Assembly: GCA_947085845.1 (NCBI GenBank)
Contig: CAMTXO010000002.1
Coordinates: 234,231-298,230 of the forward strand
Direction of reading: 5' to 3'
DNA length: 64,000 nucleotides
Source of the DNA: an uncultured Candidatus Saccharibacteria bacterium
GTDB lineage: Bacteria; Patescibacteriota; Saccharimonadia; Saccharimonadales; Saccharimonadaceae
The notes under the pieces were generated by a model. That model did no database searches. It was given only the letters and a program-made list of their open reading frames with translations, and had not been told where the DNA came from. Below, piece by piece: positions 4,847 through 55,068 of the stretch (the first letter of the stretch is position 1; each line of letters starts with the position of its first letter). The translations under genes were made by a program, and so were the position numbers.

Positions 4847-5695
4847 TTATTTTAGCACGCCAGATATGGTTTTGTCTGTAAATAACAGGGTTTTTTCTTT
4901 TGTAATTTCGAACTTTGTTCCTGGCTTTGCAGTTTTGATAGCCATCAAGAGTCTCTTTGATTGTGGGCGAGTAAGTTGCAGCTGTGAGCGAAGTACTTCC
5001 AACGAGACACTAGTAGGCCACATTATAAAATTGTGTCTACGATCGGTAGCAAATTCAGTCGTGTGAGTATCTATCTCATCTGCCAGATCACGCTGTGACT
5101 GATACAACTGCAGAAATTGTTGTCGCTGATTTTCGTTCATTTTTGTAACAATCTTGTGGCGAATTTCGTTTCGCAGATACTTGAGATCTTGGTTCGTACT
5201 ATCCTCTACCCACCGCAAATCATTGTTTTTTGCATAATCTAAAATATCTGCCTTTGTCAGATCGAGTAGGGGTCGACCAATATATTTCGTATTTCTAAGT
5301 GAGCTAATACCTCGCCAACCAGTTCCACGGATCAAGTTAATTATGATGGTCTCTATGATGTCGTCGCTGTGATGTGCTGTGACTATTTTTAATGCATTGC
5401 GATTTTGTCGCAATTTTTTCAAAAAAGCATATCTAGCATCTCTAGCTTGTTCCTCGCTGGCATCTGGACCAAGGGCTGCTGCACCTAATTCAAATTCCAA
5501 TCCATATTTTTCTGCAAGTGTTTTGACGAACATAGCGTCATTTGCTGACTCAGCTCGAATGCCGTGATCAAAATGAGCAACTACAAGCTTGATATTACCC
5601 TGTTTGCTAAGCAAATCCAGCAATGCCACAGAGTCTACTCCGCCAGATACGGCAACAATATATTCACCTTGTACTAATTTTTCTACTGTATTCAC
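4847..5695 (-). CDS. tilS: tRNA(Ile)-lysidine synthase (short form)
   Basis: PP-loop SGGVDSVAL near the N-terminus. It sits directly downstream of ftsH, which is the common tilS-ftsH neighbourhood. Confidence 0.85.
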   Translation of the reverse strand: MNTVEKLVQGEYIVAVSGGVDSVALLDLLSKQGNIKLVVAHFDHGIRAESANDAMFVKTLAEKYGLEFELGAAALGPDASEEQARDARYAFLKKLRQNRNALKIVTAHHSDDIIETIIINLIRGTGWRGISSLRNTKYIGRPLLDLTKADILDYAKNNDLRWVEDSTNQDLKYLRNEIRHKIVTKMNENQRQQFLQLYQSQRDLADEIDTHTTEFATDRRHNFIMWPTSVSLEVLRSQLQLTRPQSKRLLMAIKTAKPGTKFEITKEKTLLFTDKTISGVLK

Positions 5696-5718: not shown

Positions 5719-5886
5719 TTAAACCCTAATTTTTGTACCAACCCAAATACCAAATAAACCACCAACAAGTCCGCCAAGAATACTTAGACCTCCCAGGCCT
5801 GTAGGATCCCAGCCTGCCAGTATCGGTATATAGGCACCTAAAGTACCGAATATGCCCGCCATTAGTGTTAAGACCCCTTTACTCAT
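5719..5886 (-). CDS. Small glycine-rich membrane peptide (55 aa), hypothetical
   Basis: My translation is MSKGVLTLMAGIFGTLGAYIPILAGWDPTGLGGLSILGGLVGGLFGIWVGTKIRV. The length of 168 nt is in frame. It falls below the ORF-track cutoff and I see no clear SD. Confidence 0.3.
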   Translation of the reverse strand: MSKGVLTLMAGIFGTLGAYIPILAGWDPTGLGGLSILGGLVGGLFGIWVGTKIRV

Positions 5887-45728: not shown

Positions 45729-48476
45729 CTATTTTTTATTTAATAGTCGCCAGATAGCAAGACCTATAAGACCCAGCCCGAGCAGACCCAAAAGTATATA
45801 TGTCTGGTCTTTGAGCCAATATAAAACTGCTAGGGCTACACCAGATGAGCCCCATAAAACAACCAAGCGATAGTTTAATACCCCACCGATAGTTAACAAA
45901 ATTACATGTTCTATAAGAAATATCATCTGGTATTTACTAGGATCACCTAGTGCAGCCAGACCTGTAGGGATACTTAGTATACAAAGCGCAGCAATAAGCC
46001 AATGTAGGGCATTATTTTTGTCTGATATTACATAACGTGCACCAGCTAGCACCGCTAGTATAATAGCCCACCAATGTGTATAGACGAGCATGTCGTAATT
46101 ACCACCAAGCGAAAACATTCTTTGCATTGCTAATGTAGCTACTACTGCTGCAGCTTCGTAATAGCCATGTTTTTTTGTACAAGCACCCTCTACCGCCAAT
46201 ATGGCTGCTGCTGCCAATAGTGTTAGAGATGCATTCAGTGCCGTGGTATCAGAGAAGAAGTGGTAGAAAGATCCAAAGAATAGAACAACAAGGCTAATTA
46301 CTACCCAAAACTGAGTTGCAGGTGTGTCTTGACGCTGCCGGCGAAGCCACGCGAGACCATAAAATATTATTGCCCACCAATTTGCATATAGCAGTACGCT
46401 AATATCATTTGCAGTATTTACAGCCACAATTCGTTGCAATGCTAATGTGGTAGCAAGTATAGCGATCTCATAGTATTCATGCTGTTTGTATACCCAGCCC
46501 TCGGCAGTTATTAATACTGATGCTGCAATTAATGTAGCTGCGGCAGCAATTGTATAGGAATCGAAGAATATAAATATCAACCCAGAAGCCATCAGCAGTA
46601 ATACACTGTAGACTCCCATAATTTGAGCTCGAACCTGGTCTTTTTGTGTTGGGAAGAATATTCTTAGTGGATAAAATATAGCAGCAGCTATCCAGGAAGT
46701 CGTCAGTAATCTACGGACCATATCTTCTTCAAATGTACCAACTAGCATATATACTGCAACCAGGAAAACGGCGTTTGCAATAATTTGAATCTGCCCTGTT
46801 TTTTCAATATAAGAAACAGCAGTTAGCAAGATAGCAATGATAGTAAAGTAAGCTGCAGCCCATTCAAAAGCCAAGTTCAAACTTATGATACCGGCGATTA
46901 TTAGATATAGACTATAGCCAGCGATTATTACTTCCTTCTTCTCACCCACTTTTGCCCATAACATTCTGAGCGCTATTGCCGCAGCGCCTATAGCAACGTA
47001 AGCACCAGCTATTAACTGGTAAGACAACTGAGAATCCATGAGGTCTCTGCCGATTTGGATTGGAAGTGCCGCTGCTACAAATATTCCTACCAGTGCAAAA
47101 CGTGCCTGTTGTAGCCAGGCAGCAAGGCTAATGCTTGTAACTACAGTGAGCGCTAGTGATGCAGTGGTCATTTCGGCACGAATATCGGATTGACTCCACA
47201 ATGATATAGCGACAAGCAGGACAGCCATGCCTCCCCAGATCCAAAATTGTTCATCATCACTTTTTGTCTTTTTGATAACCACCGCAGATATAATAATCTG
47301 CACAAGAGCGACAGACGAGAGCACAATACCCGTAGTGACGAGATCTTTTGAAGAAATGTCGTAGGTAAACAATACTACAGCTATACTTGCTGCCAAACGT
47401 GCAAGAAATACATAGATTTGACGATAACTATCTTTGCTAGGTGCAAGCGCAGCTACCCCGTAATGTAGCGCGGCTACCGCCAAAACTACAGCATTTTGCC
47501 ATAGCGGTACCTGGGAGACACCCCACCAACTACCAAATACTGCTAACGGGACAGCTAGCTGTCCGCTATCGTCAATAGGCTTCAAGAAAACACCAGGTAA
47601 TAATTTTGGCCGTAGAAACGCAATAATATTTAGTATTGATGCTACCAAAATAATGAGGATAAAGTACCATACAAATCCTATCTGCAGCACCGCAACGGAA
47701 GAGGTAGTCATTGAGAACACAAAACCAAGAGTTAGATATGCAAGGACTTGGCTCTGCAGTTTTAGCGTCGCAAACAGGAACAATACTAGTCCCAAAATAG
47801 ATGTGATAAACCAACTGAGTACAGGGTCGTGTAATACGAATGTATTTGTAGCAAGCCCAGCAAATGGAAGTAGCGCCAAACCTGTACCAATAAATGCGAC
47901 CGCCGCTGGTCGTAACCGCTGGCTAGAACTATGGAGAATCATTCCCGAACCATAGAACCCTATGGTTACCGCCCAGGCGCCTATAAACTTTAGACTATTG
48001 TCGACTGATCCGCCTATAAATAGTACAGCGGCAGCGACTAATAAAAAGCTGGCAACATATAATATGGTATTAATATTCTGAAGATCACGCTGCTCTTTTG
48101 TTTTCTCATGCGTAATAATCGGTTGCTTTGTTGTTTTTCGTTGTTTTGGAGTAGTTTCTTCAGCTTCTTCACCATCAGAAAAAGGAGACCAGCTGGCCTC
48201 CGTTTCTGTTTTTTCTAGTGTTGCGGTTTGTTTTACTTCCTCACTAACAGTTTTTGTAGCGCTAGTCACGCCCATTTCTTTTAGTAAAACACTCTTATTG
48301 ATCAGTTTCGGTTGTGACGATATAAATGCCACCATATAGTCTCTAACTTCACGTTGACCTTGGAGTCTTAGCTCGTCATTGCTAGCTTTTCCAGAACTAT
48401 TCCCTTTGCCTATAAAGTAGCCAATAGCAAATGGTACCCCAAATACCAACGCCAAGATTAGAAGTATCCCCTCCAT
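45729..48476 (-). CDS. Very large polytopic membrane protein (915 aa) with internal repeats
   Basis: About 25 or more TM helices. The module EG...K.H.YYE.A...TLA.QR....D....Y..WWAII occurs twice. Confidence 0.6.
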   Translation of the reverse strand: MEGILLILALVFGVPFAIGYFIGKGNSSGKASNDELRLQGQREVRDYMVAFISSQPKLINKSVLLKEMGVTSATKTVSEEVKQTATLEKTETEASWSPFSDGEEAEETTPKQRKTTKQPIITHEKTKEQRDLQNINTILYVASFLLVAAAVLFIGGSVDNSLKFIGAWAVTIGFYGSGMILHSSSQRLRPAAVAFIGTGLALLPFAGLATNTFVLHDPVLSWFITSILGLVLFLFATLKLQSQVLAYLTLGFVFSMTTSSVAVLQIGFVWYFILIILVASILNIIAFLRPKLLPGVFLKPIDDSGQLAVPLAVFGSWWGVSQVPLWQNAVVLAVAALHYGVAALAPSKDSYRQIYVFLARLAASIAVVLFTYDISSKDLVTTGIVLSSVALVQIIISAVVIKKTKSDDEQFWIWGGMAVLLVAISLWSQSDIRAEMTTASLALTVVTSISLAAWLQQARFALVGIFVAAALPIQIGRDLMDSQLSYQLIAGAYVAIGAAAIALRMLWAKVGEKKEVIIAGYSLYLIIAGIISLNLAFEWAAAYFTIIAILLTAVSYIEKTGQIQIIANAVFLVAVYMLVGTFEEDMVRRLLTTSWIAAAIFYPLRIFFPTQKDQVRAQIMGVYSVLLLMASGLIFIFFDSYTIAAAATLIAASVLITAEGWVYKQHEYYEIAILATTLALQRIVAVNTANDISVLLYANWWAIIFYGLAWLRRQRQDTPATQFWVVISLVVLFFGSFYHFFSDTTALNASLTLLAAAAILAVEGACTKKHGYYEAAAVVATLAMQRMFSLGGNYDMLVYTHWWAIILAVLAGARYVISDKNNALHWLIAALCILSIPTGLAALGDPSKYQMIFLIEHVILLTIGGVLNYRLVVLWGSSGVALAVLYWLKDQTYILLGLLGLGLIGLAIWRLLNKK

Positions 48477-49695: not shown

Positions 49696-50814
49696 ATGAA
49701 ATATTTCCTACATCGCGCACTCGGTGCTGTTGGCATGGTTCGCGTCGGTATCCGTCAAGTGTACGGAAGATATTTTGGAAAAATAGAGCATATAGACGGC
49801 AACGCACGTCATGTGAGCGCTGAAATTGTAAAACGTCTCTGGAACGGCACTTTCTACCGAACAAGCTTGGGACATTATGATTTTTTCTGGATGCGTGACT
49901 TTGGTACAGTTGCTGAATCACTTACAAAATTAGGTCATGGAGAAAATGTTCGCAATACTTTAAAATGGGCACTTGTGCATTTTCAAAATATCGACCATGT
50001 AACGCTTTGCATTGATAAATCTGGTCGCACATTTAATGCACCAGATGGGCATAGTATAGACGCTTTACCTTGGCTGCTACACTCACTCGCAGTTAGTCAC
50101 TATGAATTAACACAGAAAGAACGAGTTTTTTTAAACCGTCGTTTGTCAAAATACTCCGAGAGATACATTGACTCTTTCACAGGTCATCTCACCAAAAATC
50201 TTTACGCTGAACTACGTGACGCGGTATTTTATGATCGTAGTGCATATTCGTATGCTTTGGTGGGTCGTCTAGCGGCTGCATCTCAAGAACTTGGCTTACA
50301 TTTTCCCTTTCCAAAAAGTCGTTATGAAGAAGCCTTGGTAAAATACTACTGGAATGGTTCGTTTTTTAGAGCTGACAGCAAACTAAATGTTTTTAGTGCC
50401 GACAGCGCCTTAATGCCTTTCTTTTTGAAGGTAGTTGAAGACGAAAAGTTGGTAAACAAGACATTCGACTATATAAACGATGAAAAACTTAACCGCCCTT
50501 ACCCACTCAAGTACAGTAAAATTGGCGGCAAAATACGCTATCGTTTCGGAATGGGGCCCATTGCGTTGCCAAACTACACAGGCAATAGTATATGGACATG
50601 GCACGCAACATTTTACCTTCATCTTCTTAAGCGCTATAAACGTCGCGAATATGGTCAAGAATATGAGAGATTTGCTTCACTAATCGAACGTCACGGTAAC
50701 TATCCAGAACTGGTAAACCCCGATGGGTCTTGGTATTATGCCCCCTTCTACCGTAGTGATCCTGGTATGGTATGGGCAGCACTTTTTCTAGAATTACCCA
50801 CCCCTCGCGATTAA
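49696..50814 (+). CDS. Glycoside-hydrolase-like (alpha/alpha)6-barrel protein (GDE_C/GH15/GH63-like), tentative
   Basis: The FFWMRDFG motif and protein size are the only support. The family call is weak. Confidence 0.4.
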   Translation: MKYFLHRALGAVGMVRVGIRQVYGRYFGKIEHIDGNARHVSAEIVKRLWNGTFYRTSLGHYDFFWMRDFGTVAESLTKLGHGENVRNTLKWALVHFQNIDHVTLCIDKSGRTFNAPDGHSIDALPWLLHSLAVSHYELTQKERVFLNRRLSKYSERYIDSFTGHLTKNLYAELRDAVFYDRSAYSYALVGRLAAASQELGLHFPFPKSRYEEALVKYYWNGSFFRADSKLNVFSADSALMPFFLKVVEDEKLVNKTFDYINDEKLNRPYPLKYSKIGGKIRYRFGMGPIALPNYTGNSIWTWHATFYLHLLKRYKRREYGQEYERFASLIERHGNYPELVNPDGSWYYAPFYRSDPGMVWAALFLELPTPRD

Positions 50815-50818
50815 GTAC

Positions 50819-50847
50819 TTGACAAATATTGCATAATGGAGTAATAT
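50819..50847 (+). promoter_or_regulatory. Consensus sigma70-type promoter
   Basis: TTGACA (50819-50824), a 17-nt spacer, then TAATAT (50842-50847). It begins 4 nt after the stop of the preceding CDS. Confidence 0.7.
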
Positions 50848-50851
50848 ATAA

Positions 50852-51270
50852 GTCCGCCACAAGTGAGTGGCCAAATGGGAAATAGATAGCCAGACCACAG
50901 AGTGAAATGACAGGCGTACACAAGTACCCTGTCCCTATTCAAGCGGGAGGACCGCAGCAAAGTGGCAATACAGCTCAAACCCTAGGGCAGAGGCCCCTAA
51001 ACCAAGACCTCACCCCCGACTTGACGCAGTCAAGTCACTAGTACCCGAAAGGGTCTACAACACCTGAATGCCCTGAACTTTTCAGTCACGCACTGAGAGT
51101 TGCAGTCGCATACACCGGCCGCGAATAGGGAGGAGAATACGAGATTCCAACAATAGCAGACTTAATAGGACTGAGGCAGACGTGCACTCACCCGACAAAG
51201 CAGCTTGAGGAAGTCGAGTTATCTCCTCCCTACCGGCACTCCAAGCCAGCGAGCAATCGCTGGCTATTTT
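50852..51270 (+). ncRNA. Unclassified ~420-nt structured non-coding RNA candidate
   Basis: It is promoter-to-terminator delimited and clearly more GC-rich than its surroundings, with no credible ORF. It contains many stable hairpins and a long-range GGGAGGAGA/TCTCCTCCC pairing. The terminator is GCCAGCGA-GCAA-TCGCTGGC followed by TATTTT (51245-51270). Confidence 0.6.
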
Positions 51271-51288
51271 CATATATAAACCCTAGAT

Positions 51289-53142
51289 TTATACTACATT
51301 TGTTAAGATATCTTGTAATTCTTGCTCTTCTTCTGAATTTAAAACAAAAGGAAAATCATTAGCACAGAATTTTATAACCCCATCAAGATCGTGTTTTTCT
51401 ACACCTAAGTAATCTTCTAATTCACCTCTTTTTAAGATGTATATCCCCTCTTTGTATTTTTCTTTTATACTTATATCTATTTGTTTTTGTTTTTTTTGGT
51501 CCTCCAGGTTAAAGGGTTTTATTACTCTCTTCGTTTTTATCTTATTTTCTAGGGAATTAACTTTGTAATCCTTGCTCTCGGCAATTTTTAATTTAATTAC
51601 ACAGTCATAGTCACCTAAAAAGAAGCTCTGTATTTTCCAGCCCTCAAGAAACTTCATCCACCTTTTGTGGCTATCTTTACCATCTATAGAAAGAACTCCT
51701 ATAGATTCACCAGGAAATTTTTTTTCTATAAAAGCTCTAAAAAAATATTCATCACTTATGCCCTCAACAAGCAGTATTCTATCTTCAAAGAATATTTTTG
51801 ATGAATTCGTATAGCTCAAATACTGTATTAGATCTTTGGTTTTAGAAGCTTCTACATTGGATTTGACTGACTTTGTATTACCACTATCATCTTTATACAA
51901 ACGAATCACACCTGGAATAGATACTTCATCTACAAAAGCAGGCGAATGAGTAACAAGAATTATTTGCAATTTCCTATCTTTAGAAAATTTTTCGATTATA
52001 TCCTTATACTGTCTTTGTAGTCTTGGGTGTAAGTGAAGTTCTGGCTCATCAATGATTACTATGCCGTCATTGACATTAAACATTCCTAGTGTTAAGAGTA
52101 AATCGATAATTGATTTTTCCCCTGAACTAAGGCTGTTATATGGAACTTCGCCATTGTTTTGTTTTAAGCAAAACTCAAAAGTATGGGTTTCGTATATATA
52201 ATCTTTTAGGTCAAATGATAGTCCTGAGTGCTTTTTAAGATACTTAATTGTTTCATCTTCTTCTAGCGCAGATCGGACGGCTTTTTCAGCTTCTTCTTTT
52301 CCATGCTTTTTTCCTGCAATATAGCCCTTGTCTATGAATTCCTGGAAAAAAATACTATTGCCATTTGACTGATCTTGATAATTACCAAGTGTGCTGGTCT
52401 TTAGCCCTTTTACAGTATTGATTTTTTCATTAAGAAGATCTGTTTTTGATTTGGCACGGCTAAAAGATAACGGGAAACCACTGTATATTCTGCTGGCGCC
52501 TTTCAATAGAAAAGTAGGCTTTAGATTATTTAGAGTATTACTTCCGTCTCCATTTGCATTAATCAGGTCTATTGCTCTGTTGATAAGTTCGTAATTCTCT
52601 AGGTACTGAGTCCATATATTTTGCACTTGTACAGTCGCAGTAATTTGCTGACCATAAATAAAGTCGATCTCTATGTCTTTTTGATTTACCATGAGATATT
52701 TTTTATCTGTTCTCTCAAGGTTAGTTAAAAAAATATCTATATTTTTGTTACTGTAAGCTGCTAAGCAGTTTGTGAGATCTGTAGATATACTTTTTATATA
52801 TTCTAGGTTCTTAATATCCGACTCTTCAAACAAGACAGAAAGCTTGACATTACCTCCGCCCTTGTCCTCTGAGTTTCGGTTGGCAATAAGATGTTCGATA
52901 TTTGTATTATCTTGAATAATTGTTTGTTTTCTAGATTGCTCGTTTATAGAACTACCGTAATTGAGGGTGTATTCACAAAAAAACACTTTCGTAAATATTT
53001 GGTTTATTATTTCAACCAGATTACTCTTGCCAGAACCATTAGGCCCAATAATAATATTGGGCCTATCATCTTCTAATACGATTGGTTCACTAGTTGTTGC
53101 GAAACTACGAATATTTGAAATTTGTATAGATCGCAGTTTCAT
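51289..53142 (-). CDS. OLD-family / PARIS-like ABC ATPase fused to a C-terminal Toprim (DUF4435-like) nuclease domain
   Basis: Walker A GPNGSGKS, signature LSSGEKS, Walker B VIIDEPELHLH, and H-loop VTHSP. The C-terminal region carries ILLVEGISDEYFF and FLGDYD (Toprim E and DxD), then GELEDYL. The SD AAGGAG lies inside the last dnaK codons. Confidence 0.75.
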   Translation of the reverse strand: MKLRSIQISNIRSFATTSEPIVLEDDRPNIIIGPNGSGKSNLVEIINQIFTKVFFCEYTLNYGSSINEQSRKQTIIQDNTNIEHLIANRNSEDKGGGNVKLSVLFEESDIKNLEYIKSISTDLTNCLAAYSNKNIDIFLTNLERTDKKYLMVNQKDIEIDFIYGQQITATVQVQNIWTQYLENYELINRAIDLINANGDGSNTLNNLKPTFLLKGASRIYSGFPLSFSRAKSKTDLLNEKINTVKGLKTSTLGNYQDQSNGNSIFFQEFIDKGYIAGKKHGKEEAEKAVRSALEEDETIKYLKKHSGLSFDLKDYIYETHTFEFCLKQNNGEVPYNSLSSGEKSIIDLLLTLGMFNVNDGIVIIDEPELHLHPRLQRQYKDIIEKFSKDRKLQIILVTHSPAFVDEVSIPGVIRLYKDDSGNTKSVKSNVEASKTKDLIQYLSYTNSSKIFFEDRILLVEGISDEYFFRAFIEKKFPGESIGVLSIDGKDSHKRWMKFLEGWKIQSFFLGDYDCVIKLKIAESKDYKVNSLENKIKTKRVIKPFNLEDQKKQKQIDISIKEKYKEGIYILKRGELEDYLGVEKHDLDGVIKFCANDFPFVLNSEEEQELQDILTNVV

Positions 53143-53148
53143 TTATTG

Positions 53149-55068
53149 CTACTCCTTTTTGGAGCCTTTGTCTTCGTCGATTACTTCACCTTCTACAGGC
53201 TCTTCTGTTTTCTTTTCTTCGCCTTCTTCTGCTGGTTCGCCTGCTGGCGAATTCTCAGCTGCAGCTGCTTCGTACAACTTAGCGCCAATTGGCATTACTT
53301 TTTCAGACAATTCTTTTGCAGCAGTTTCTAGCGCTTCTTTATCTGCAGCTTCGTCCGCCAAAACTTTTTTACCAGCTTCTACTGCCTCTTCGATAACTTT
53401 CTTGTCATCATCAGAAATCTTGTCCTTGTTTTCACTCGGTAGTTTTTCTGCTTGGTAGATACCGTTCTCTAGAGTGTTACGAGCGTCAATAGATTCGCGT
53501 TTTTTCTTGTCGTCTTCAGCATGAGCTTCGGCTTCTTTCTGAGCTTTTTCGATATCTTCTTTGCTCATATTTCCACTGCCAGAAATAGTAATAGACTGTT
53601 CTTTACCAGTTCCTTTATCTTTGGCAGCTACATTCAAAATTCCGTTTGCATCAATATTAAATGTTACTTCGATTTGTGGCACACCGCGAGGTGCAGGCGC
53701 GATGCCATCTAGCGTAAAGCGTCCGAGTGATTTGTTGTCGGTAGACATTTCACGCTCGCCTTGCAGTACATTGATTTCAACCTGCGGCTGATTGTCTGCT
53801 GCAGTTGAATAAGTTTCGGACTTGCTAGTAGGAACTGTTGTGTTTCGCTCGATCAACTTGTGAGTTACACCACCAAGAGTTTCGATACCAAGCGAAAGGG
53901 GAGTGACATCTAGAAGTAGTACATCTTTTACGTCCCCTGCTAATACTCCACCTTGTATAGCTGCACCAACGGCAACTACTTCATCCGGGTTCACGCCTTG
54001 CATAGGGTCTTTACCGAAAATTGATTTTACCTTTTCGACGACTGCAGGCATACGTGTCATACCACCAACAAGTACAATTTCGTCGATATCACTTGCTTTT
54101 AGTTTTGCGTCTTTCAATGCTTTTTCAACTGGTTTTGCCGTTGCGTCGATCAAATCACCTACGATTTCTTCGAGTTTGGCACGAGTCAGTTTGTATTCAA
54201 AATGTTTCGGACCATCTGCATCGGCAGTAAGAAATGGCAGGTTAATGTCTGTAGATGGAGTGCTTGAAAGCTCCTTCTTAGCTTTTTCGGCTTCGTCTTT
54301 GAGACGTTGCATTGCTGCATTGTCGCCTTTTAGATCAACACCGTTTTCTTTTTTGAATTCATCTAAAAAGTGGTTGACGATTCGGTTGTCAAAATCTTCA
54401 CCGCCTAGGTGTGTGTCGCCGTTAGTAGATTTTACTTCGAACACGCCGTCGCCTAGCTCTAATATAGATACATCAAATGTACCACCACCAAGGTCAAAGA
54501 CCGCAATCTTTTCTTCCTTTTTCTGATCTAGCCCGTACGCTAGAGCAGCTGCAGTTGGTTCATTGATTATTCGTTTGACTTCTAGGCCTGCAATCTTACC
54601 CGCATCTTTGGTTGCTTGGCGCTGTGCGTCGTCGAAATATGCTGGAACGGTGATGACCGCTTCAGTCACAGACTCACCTAGAAACGCTTCGGCATCGGCT
54701 TTTAACTTACTCAGGATCATTGCCGAAACAGCTTCTGGCGTTTCACTTCCGTCACCTAATTTTACTGCCACACCATTGCCTTTTTTGACAATTTCAAATG
54801 GCATTAGGTCGATATCTTTTTGTACTTCTTTATCTGTAAATTTACGTCCAATCAAACGTTTCACACCATAGATAGTGTTTTTGGCGTTCGTTACTCGCTG
54901 ACGTTGGGCAACTTGCCCAACTAAACGCTCGCCTTTTTTGTTGACTGCTACGACAGATGGCGTAGTTCGATTACCTTCAGCATTCGCAATAACTTCTGGC
55001 TTGCCCGCAACCATGTAAGCTACTGCGCTGTTAGTAGTACCGAGGTCGATTCCTATGATTTTGCCCAT
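53149..55068 (-). CDS. dnaK: Chaperone DnaK (Hsp70)
   Basis: GIDLGTTNS and DLGGGTFD motifs, full-length Hsp70, with an acidic tail. Confidence 0.97.

Follow-up and report, generated by a model that had tools for sequence, protein, structure and literature searches.

A previously undescribed accessory RNA gene between dnaJ and dnaK in a clade of Saccharibacteria, with a predicted modular fold

Introduction

What does an unusually GC-rich gap between two convergent genes of an uncultured Candidatus Saccharibacteria bacterium encode? The gap, at positions 50815-51288 of a 64,000-nucleotide stretch of contig CAMTXO010000002.1 (the whole stretch is referred to here as the window), separates a gene for a 372-amino-acid (372-aa) protein from an OLD-family gene and the adjoining dnaK. 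A preliminary description had placed in it a promoter-to-terminator RNA of some 420 nucleotides (nt), taken to be either a divergent housekeeping RNA or a novel large non-coding RNA, possibly acquired with or functionally tied to the neighbouring defence-like gene. The analysis presented here identifies positions 50819-51271 as a self-contained gene, predicted to yield a stable non-coding RNA that is about 415 nt long and highly folded. The family to which this RNA belongs is previously undescribed and is not in Rfam 15. Nine distinct RNA sequences were found, and they fall into type A (window/L124/L125; L002; L003/L114-117; L091; L123; L119-122), type B (L007/L118/L102; L082) and type C (L126/127), where the labels L001-L127 denote loci and contigs examined alongside the window.

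A self-contained transcription unit

The 474-nt gap is the sole intergenic stretch of at least 150 nt in the window with a GC content of 50%, against a window average of 41.7%, and it contains 32% A and 18% T. This agrees with the initial remark that the region is more GC-rich than the surrounding DNA. A scan of positions 50300-51800 returned the plus-strand TTGACA-17 nt-TAATAT element at 50819-50847 as the top promoter-like site, with 10 of 12 matches, together with a single terminator-like site at 51244-51265. Both signals had been proposed beforehand. The promoter stands as described, as do the GNRA loop and the U-tract of the terminator, while the terminator stem comprises nine pairs rather than the eight originally counted. 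The -35 hexamer lies at an identical offset in all nine variants, with drift in the spacer and in the -10 box (TAATAT, TATAGT, TAAAAT). Moreover, the terminator stem is the same in types A and B, closed by either a GCAA or a GAAA loop, and L126 carries a stem with covarying changes. The terminator hairpin occurs once in the 64 kb, with no second copy, and on this ground a DNA-uptake-sequence-like terminator was rejected.

The plus strand is predicted to fold at -148 kcal/mol (z = -5.5), a stability equalled by none of 100 shuffled sequences, and the minus strand gives z = -4.0. The RNA is assigned to the plus strand because the promoter and terminator lie there and because one-sided changes in paired positions give G-U pairs on that strand. 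A minus-strand RNA, which would come without promoter or terminator and in which the same changes would make A.C mismatches, was rejected. Together, the transcription signals, the fold statistics and the covariation described below support the original proposal of a structured non-coding RNA running from promoter to terminator on the plus strand. The stop codon of the convergent OLD gene lies at 51289, 18 nt past the U-tract, exactly the spacing first reported.

Could the region instead code for small proteins, whether one or several? In some members of the family, both strands contain open stretches of 44-97 codons. Within the RNA gene, however, every sense frame is interrupted, as the preliminary description had stated, and no open sense frame exceeds 53 codons. 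Frames are broken between close relatives by insertions or deletions of 1, 2 and 5 nt, the ATG at 50907 of the window is missing in L002 and L003, and substitutions track base pairing rather than codons. Because these length changes are not multiples of three and no start codon is shared, the region is read as non-coding. Additionally, 13 translated frames, searched in concatenated form against a collection of 5.8 billion proteins, gave no match. A coding role is extremely improbable.

Covariation and constraint

In an alignment of the eight type-A sequences, the predicted fold comprises 94 pairs in 15 helices, with 95.9% paired. Changes on both sides of a pair number 10 in this alignment, compared with 0-2 when the partners are slid by 1-3 columns, and none of 500 shuffles reached the observed percentage paired, the double-change count or the covariation score. 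A three-sequence covariation analysis was also made alongside the eight-sequence alignment. These controls support the base pairing, which is also marked by the wholesale replacement of hairpins at fixed sites: the hairpin at 50909-50933 is replaced in L123, and that at 51168-51193 in L002 and L003.

The mean column identity of the type-A RNA alignment is 87%, and an 83-nt block at 50931-51013 shows a single change among three genomes. In the adjacent 372-aa gene, third-codon identity is near saturation (58% between the window and L002, 57% between L007 and L082, 53% between the window and L007). Judged by this pattern of substitution, the RNA gene is selectively maintained, and its base pairing is kept by compensatory changes.

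Architecture of the predicted fold

The features of the RNA and of the flanking genes are collected in Table 1. Every hairpin named in the preliminary description was recovered (50856-50871, 50909-50933, 50982-50999, 51018-51036 and 51043-51054), several of them with compensatory changes. The long-range 9-bp pairing GGGAGGAGA/UCUCCUCCC noted at the same time is likewise present and extends to the 11 pairs of P-b.

Table 1. Positions of predicted RNA features and flanking genes in the window
Feature	Position	Strand	Remarks
sigma-70-type promoter	50819-50847	+	-35 TTGACA 50819-50824; 17-nt spacer; -10 TAATAT 50842-50847
Predicted transcript, ~415-420 nt	50852-51271	+	start at G50852 or G50856 (5-9 nt past the -10 box); end in the U-tract
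5' hairpin GCCAC-AAGUGA-GUGGC	50856-50871	+	kept in all type-A variants
5' multi-helix domain	50895-50965	+	closed by CCAC 50895-50898 with GUGG 50962-50965
Variable hairpin inside 5' domain	50909-50933	+	different hairpin in its place in L123
Hairpin GCGG-GAGGA-CCGC inside 5' domain	50943-50955	+
Candidate H-type pseudoknot	50983-51011	+	UAGGG-CA-GAGG-C-CCCUA, A-rich last loop, CCUC
Pseudoknot stem 1	50983-50987 / 50995-50999	+	UAGGG / CCCUA
Pseudoknot stem 2	50990-50993 / 51008-51011	+	GAGG / CCUC
Hairpin GACUUGAC-GCA-GUCAAGUC	51018-51036	+	helix 7: 2 pairs changed on both sides, 2 on one side
Hairpin ACCC-GAAA-GGGU	51043-51054	+	GNRA tetraloop; loop GCAA in relatives
Long irregular hairpin	51070-51109	+	helix 9: 3 pairs changed on both sides, 3 on one side
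3' domain, long irregular hairpin	51118-51237	+	holds P-a, P-b, tandem G.A loop, P-c, P-d and apical hairpin; inverted repeat I1
P-a	51118-51121 / 51234-51237	+	GCCG / CGGC
P-b, 11 pairs	51126-51136 / 51222-51232	+	UAGGGAGGAGA / UCUCCUCCCUA
P-c	51143-51148 / 51209-51215	+	GAUUCC / GGAAGUC; A-U pair changed to C-G in relatives
P-d	51155-51163 / 51198-51205	+	AGCAGACUU / AAGCAGCU; 7 invariant pairs
Apical hairpin of 3' domain	51168-51193	+	exchanged between variants; two unrelated versions
Intrinsic terminator	51244-51271	+	AGCCAGCGA-GCAA-UCGCUGGCU at 51244-51265; 9-pair stem, GNRA loop, then AUUUUC
372-aa gene, upstream of RNA	49696-50814	+	no Pfam domain; no relative of solved structure
OLD-family ATPase/TOPRIM gene	51289-53142	-	best PADLOC matches Old, GajA, AriA/AriAB
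dnaK	53149-55068	-

Sequence variation distinguishes between competing pairings at the 5' end. Specifically, L123 retains the 5' hairpin but breaks a rival long-range pairing of its GCCAC strand with 50963-50967, and in the same variant the closing pair of the 5' domain changes from C-G to A-U. In the middle of the RNA, the candidate pseudoknot occupies the 3' end of the 83-nt near-invariant core. Its motif is invariant across all type-A sequences and is the sole body segment significantly common to the window, L082 and L126, with a score of 40 against 16 ± 2.4 for shuffled sequences; one of its stem-1 pairs is U-A in L082 and C-G in L126. We infer, short of proof, that a pseudoknot forms at 50983-51011.

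The tetraloop of the hairpin at 51043-51054 is GAAA in the window and GCAA in relatives, so that its GNRA form is kept, and GNRA loops alternate between GAAA and GCAA in two hairpins across the variants. Within the 3' domain, P-b covaries (GGGAGGAGA, GGGAGGGAUGA, GGG(U)GGGGAUGA), its 5' strand being purine-rich and its 3' strand pyrimidine-rich in types A, B and C.

The apical hairpin has two alleles, one in the window and one in L002 (about 5478-5505), which contain the self-complementary hexamers GUGCAC and AGUACU, respectively, near the loop. This arrangement would suit allele-specific kissing dimers. Six-nucleotide palindromes number 4-14 per RNA against about 6.5 expected, and kissing-loop palindromes were rejected because palindromic loop sequences are not enriched overall.

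Exchange of modules between variants

The bodies of type A and type B RNAs show no significant similarity and are unalignable over most of their length. Several variants combine segments of different affinity. In L082, the 3' 150 nt are about 95% identical to L007 and the 5' 320 nt about 75-80% identical to L126; L123 joins a new 5' segment of 130 nt to a type-A remainder; and L091 and L123 bear the apical hairpin of the window in an RNA that is otherwise L002-like. Kept in every variant are the -35 TTGACA at its fixed offset, P-a (general form GGCYG with CRGCC), P-b and the terminator hairpin. As these comparisons indicate, the RNA consists of 5' and 3' modules that variants exchange by recombination.

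Such a pattern could mark a new class of large structured RNA, limited to one lineage of ultra-small, episymbiotic bacteria, in which a fixed promoter, closing helix and terminator frame modules around a pseudoknot core, the modules being recombined under diversifying selection. We consider this unlikely. If it were true, the RNA would have its role at a fast-evolving interface, with host bacteria, phages or sibling strains, or in allele-specific self-assembly, beyond that of a simple cellular scaffold.

Distribution and accessory status

A search by nhmmer of 80 syntenic Saccharibacteria loci, fetched for this purpose, returned the RNA in the closest relatives alone. The flanking 372-aa protein belongs to a 90%-identity cluster of 39 members, whose contigs were fetched as well; all nine distinct RNA sequences lie inside this cluster, the L119 copy having been recognised by reading its unannotated gap. 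A metagenome scan with the terminator pattern added the partial copy L091 and re-found the L007 contig as L102; the other 23 metagenome matches and 3 viral-contig matches to this hairpin come from unrelated organisms and are ordinary terminators. No syntenic RNA was found in more distant Saccharibacteria, in which long gaps hold small open reading frames and fold no better than shuffled sequences. Phage, plasmid and viral-contig collections yielded no similarity, the one match being a chance match inside a coding region. As far as these searches reach, the family is confined to one genus-level Saccharibacteria clade. Among the viral material, the unrelated IMG/VR contig L113 carries, at 1040-1270, a GC-rich and apparently structured non-coding stretch directly after an open reading frame of 329 aa.

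Even among close relatives the gene comes and goes. The RNA is not at this locus in L004, L005, L006 and L008, whose 372-aa proteins are 83-87% identical to that of the window, nor at the locus in about 70 more distant Saccharibacteria, a copy elsewhere in the RNA-negative genomes not being excluded. In L004, dnaK lies 1 nt past the 372-aa gene. L005 has, at 5795-5884, a 52-nt GC-rich terminator hairpin (AAAAAGACCCGC...GCGGGTCTTT) where L119 has, at 1948-2417, a promoter-RNA-terminator unit of about 465 nt, and the two loci share the same flanking genes. No repeats or target duplication were detected at the L005/L119 junctions. Because L005 carries a plain terminator exactly at the position of the L119 unit, the RNA gene is classed as accessory; in these genomes it is a presence/absence polymorphism among close relatives.

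Presence or absence of a promoter-to-terminator unit as a block, combined with mosaic modules, might also be expected of a relic or non-autonomous piece of a mobile element, such as a ribozyme derived from a group I or group II intron, an omega-RNA-like scaffold or an integrated remnant. The GNRA loops, pseudoknot and A-rich joints resemble those of self-folding ribozymes, and in the window a C(A)GACU/AGUCG pairing can be drawn that is identical to P7 of group I introns, the helix that holds the guanosine-binding site inside their P3-P8 pseudoknot core. This pairing was rejected: in L002 and L091, a GU to CG change in the 3' strand breaks it and is compensated in P-c, which is thereby preserved. 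The group I intron model RF00028 gave no match, nor did any Rfam intron or HEARO model, and the RNA has its own promoter and terminator, unlike an intron, with no exon context. Moreover, neither direct nor inverted repeats flank the unit, the L005/L119 junction shows no duplicated target, and the RNA occurs once per locus and once in the 64-kb window. The scanned neighbours encode no domain of a transposase, integrase, reverse transcriptase, IscB or TnpB, and the setting of a retron, DRT or omega RNA is missing in that no reverse transcriptase, IscB or TnpB gene adjoins the RNA. A mobile-element origin accordingly has a low probability.

Several metagenome contigs break at the RNA. L122 and L125 end inside it, L091 starts in its middle, and L001 ends 63 nt past the 372-aa gene. 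Such breaks would fit co-existing variants of the locus within single samples, and low coverage is an equally simple cause.

Genomic context and the adjacent OLD gene

The gene order in the window is dnaJ (-), the 372-aa gene (+), the RNA (+), OLD (-) and dnaK (-). OLD starts 6 nt past the stop codon of dnaK and is therefore probably co-transcribed with this heat-shock gene. Among the 80 Saccharibacteria loci, the majority have the 372-aa gene and dnaK facing each other directly, with about 50 nt between them, so the RNA and OLD occupy an insertion-prone gap. The RNA always lies in this convergent gap between the 372-aa gene and the dnaK operon, where unrelated single genes vary. Downstream of the RNA stand OLD in the window, a pilin-like gene in L124, a NUDIX gene in L002 and L091, an HD-domain gene in L007 and L118, a pilin cluster in L082, and dnaK directly in L003, L114-117 and L119; in L119, two small genes separate the 372-aa gene from the RNA promoter. 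The OLD slot is filled in related genomes by a NUDIX, HD-domain, pilin or YGGT-like gene, or by nothing. Since OLD is strain-specific and the content of its slot varies, the dnaK 3' end appears to be a hotspot at which single cargo genes are gained.

This arrangement bears directly on the earlier suggestion that the RNA was acquired with, or functionally tied to, the defence-like gene. The suggestion fails: OLD is found beside the RNA in the window strain alone, the eight other distinct variants have other neighbours or none, and the L124 RNA, 98% identical to that of the window, is followed by a pilin gene. No constant co-occurrence of the RNA with an ATPase-TOPRIM gene was found among the nine variants. 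Read from gene content, the RNA is not tied to the OLD gene and is not a partner of the OLD nuclease.

A broader form of the idea, in which the RNA would serve defence or counter-defence together with its variable neighbours (OLD, NUDIX, HD) as an antitoxin, decoy or guide with arms-race modules, is decidedly improbable. It would account for single genes acting on nucleic acids or nucleotides (OLD, NUDIX, HD) being appended to dnaK at a hotspot and for an RNA that is accessory, mosaic and fast-changing; contigs that often break inside the RNA (L001, L091, L122, L125) are consistent with strain-level variation. However, it finds no constant neighbour, since 98% identical RNAs stand beside OLD and a pilin gene, and several copies (L003, L114-117, L119) have no cargo gene at all. 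Tandem repeats like those of type III antitoxins (ToxI-like), which are direct repeats of some 30-40 nt beside a toxin gene, are missing from 50700-51400 at a score of at least 30, the scanned neighbours encode no reverse transcriptase, Cas or transposase domain, and the phage, plasmid and viral-contig collections hold no match.

The position of the gene also admits a main role in cis, with the RNA product secondary: a strong convergent transcription unit ending in a very stable hairpin would serve the dnaK operon and the 372-aa gene as insulator or terminator, or would be antisense to read-through from the dnaK operon. In keeping with this, L005 has only a bidirectional-looking terminator at the same position, the features common to all variants are the promoter, closing helices and terminator, and the convergent genes downstream end at a distance of 3-25 nt from it. 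The terminator hairpin lacks a U-tract on the minus strand, so read-through antisense to the RNA gene is plausible. Yet an insulator needs no 400 or so nucleotides with an 83-nt invariant core and compensatory helices, and an intergenic gap of about 50 nt suffices in most Saccharibacteria. A principal role in cis is rather improbable, and like the defence and mobile-element explanations it is given a low probability.

The products of the other neighbouring genes were compared with Pfam over about 9 kb. The domains found were DnaJ, OLD, DnaK, RimK, Zn protease, HMGL-like, AIRS, Na/H exchanger and GNAT. Neither the 915-aa nor the 372-aa protein gave a Pfam match, and none of these neighbours showed a reverse transcriptase, Cas, integrase, transposase, IscB or TnpB domain. 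Reverse transcriptase, IscB and TnpB were also missing among the gene calls of the related loci. The 372-aa protein has 469 relatives at E ≤ 0.001, and all named ones are Saccharibacteria or Patescibacteria. It contains many invariant Trp, Tyr and His residues and is always encoded between dnaJ and dnaK, on the strand opposite to both. The 915-aa protein is encoded at 45729-48476 (-) adjoining dnaJ, and its counterparts in L001, L114-116, L123 and L124 measure 913-918 aa.

Relation to known RNA families

Rfam 15 (4,227 models) was searched with cmscan at gathering scores over the whole window, and at E ≤ 10 with permissive filters over stretches of 441-901 nt from the window, L082 and L007. 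The whole-window search returned eight tRNAs and nothing else, and the E ≤ 10 scans returned terminator look-alikes or AT-rich noise only. The same scans list matches of 9-20 bits to other families, so a match scoring well over about 20 bits would not have been missed. RNase P, transfer-messenger RNA (tmRNA), signal recognition particle (SRP) RNA, 6S RNA, introns and large non-coding RNA families all went unmatched; among the last, GOLLD, ROOL, OLE, HEARO, raiA and other large Rfam RNAs gave no covariance-model match. ARAGORN found 8 tRNAs and no tmRNA in the window. The lack of RNase P, tmRNA, SRP and 6S hallmarks, originally judged by eye, is thus borne out by the Rfam scans and ARAGORN. No published description of the RNA family was found in the literature searched.

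Could this be a housekeeping RNA (RNase P, tmRNA, SRP or 6S) so strongly diverged that the Rfam models miss it? In its length of about 415 nt and its raised GC content it resembles a typical RNase P RNA or tmRNA, and variable genes beside a stable-RNA gene recall the genomic islands at tmRNA genes. RNase P motifs have short look-alikes in the RNA, namely AAGUCCG (at the 5' end), CCACAGAG and ACAAUAGCAGACUUA. The P4 helix of RNase P RNA is formed by conserved region I (CR-I, GGAAAGUCC) and conserved region V (CR-V, ACAGAA..GGCUUA) and is preceded by P1-P3. In the window, AAGUCCG begins 3 nt past the -10 box, so that little or none of it would be transcribed and P1-P3 could not lie upstream; the motif is not in types B and C. 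Its putative P4 partner, CAGACUU, sits in P-d, with its invariant pairs. RNase P RNAs from the Candidate Phyla Radiation (CPR) can fall below Rfam thresholds and need lowered ones, although many conserved features are kept (Lui et al. 2021, PMC8172020). No conserved RNase P features of that kind were seen in this RNA, and RF00010, RF00011 and RF00373 gave no match at E ≤ 10, even a weak one, in the window, L082 or L007. An RNase P identity was rejected on the lack of a model match, on a P4 look-alike that abuts the -10 box and is missing in the sister types, and on the dispensability of the gene in relatives.

The remaining housekeeping RNAs fare no better. For tmRNA (RF00023) there is no Rfam match, tRNA-like domain, tag reading frame, T-arm-like GGUUCGAAUCC or pairing of complementary 5' and 3' ends, and SRP RNA (RF00169, RF01854), marked by a GNRA/AGCA motif in helix 8, and 6S RNA (RF00013), marked by a rod-shaped hairpin, likewise gave no Rfam matches. 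The predicted, covariation-supported fold is multi-branched, with 15 helices, and is not rod-shaped with a central bubble. These three identities were rejected on the missing matches, tRNA-like domain and rod shape. Moreover, a housekeeping RNA is expected in all genomes of a lineage, with a core that evolves slowly. The close relatives L004 and L005 do without the gene at this locus, and sister variants are unalignable over most of the RNA despite flanking proteins about 90% identical, which the universal conserved regions of a housekeeping RNA would not be. The housekeeping option in the preliminary description is therefore abandoned as very improbable, and it is, together with the coding one, effectively excluded.

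Discussion

Taken as a whole, the locus is on balance probably best explained as a self-contained gene, independent of OLD, for an accessory RNA of a new family that folds and acts in trans, by itself or as the scaffold of a ribonucleoprotein. The folded molecule would most likely bind protein as a scaffold or adopt a tertiary architecture of its own, and would not serve as guide, template, mRNA or housekeeping ribozyme. Arguments for this are the GNRA loops, the candidate pseudoknot and its A-rich loop, the tandem G.A loop and the A-rich joining strands. The invariant pseudoknot-containing core may be the functional site, and the peripheral hairpins may be replaceable struts.

Several points weigh against this explanation. 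Expression, transcript ends and abundance are deduced from sequence signals alone, and a scaffold is a generic proposal. Much of the core never varies, so that the fold there, including the candidate pseudoknot, escapes the covariation test, and the 100%-identical blocks could stem in part from recent recombination rather than purifying selection. The case for the pseudoknot as functional core is further weakened because the L007/L118 sub-type is entirely without the motif. Additionally, only nine distinct sequences are available, all from one narrow clade, and the universal features are the promoter, closing helices and terminator alone, which also fits a locus at which the act of transcription matters more than its product.

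If the proposed folded, trans-acting RNA is real, it would offer an entry point to RNA-based functions in CPR bacteria, for which, to our knowledge, almost no non-coding RNAs have been described beyond the universal ones, and would show in nature how a structured RNA can evolve by modules. Bacterial RNAs that stand alone, exceed 400 nt and have complex folds are, as far as we know, rare, and every class recognised so far has led to new biology. Saccharibacteria genomes are smaller than 1 Mb and have shed most non-essential DNA, so a 415-nt RNA that has a strong promoter and is kept by selection, yet is accessory and mosaic, is unexpected there. The newness lies in the family, so far represented in a handful of environmental genomes, rather than in a demonstrated mechanism.

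Among known systems, GOLLD, ROOL, OLE and the raiA motif RNA resemble this RNA in being independently transcribed and several hundred nucleotides long, with many helices, GNRA loops and pseudoknots, and in having neighbours that do not reveal function. The distribution of GOLLD and ROOL is patchy and accessory rather than core, as with this RNA. Unlike these four classes, however, it is limited to one Saccharibacteria clade, has no sequence or structure match to them in Rfam 15, lacks an association with prophages or tRNA clusters, and exchanges whole 5' and 3' modules. Type A RNase P RNA differs from it more deeply: this RNA has no P4, which could not form in the required way, no P1-P3 and no CR-I/CR-V conserved across variants, is dispensable in close relatives and is hypervariable. 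The two nonetheless share a similar length, raised GC content, a multi-helix domain closed by CCAC/GUGG and A-rich joining strands, and 7-10-nt look-alike motifs are scattered through this RNA.

CsrB/RsmZ and 6S/Ms1 provide a further comparison. These RNAs are strongly expressed, CsrB/RsmZ sequestering a protein and 6S/Ms1 binding RNA polymerase. In contrast to CsrB/RsmZ, the present RNA has no repeated loop motif and only one GGA-containing loop, and in contrast to 6S/Ms1 it has no rod-like hairpin with a central bubble. What it has in common with both groups is a stand-alone, terminator-bearing gene that is fast-evolving and lineage-specific and that would, if the expression and binding proposed here hold, produce a folded, protein-binding RNA.

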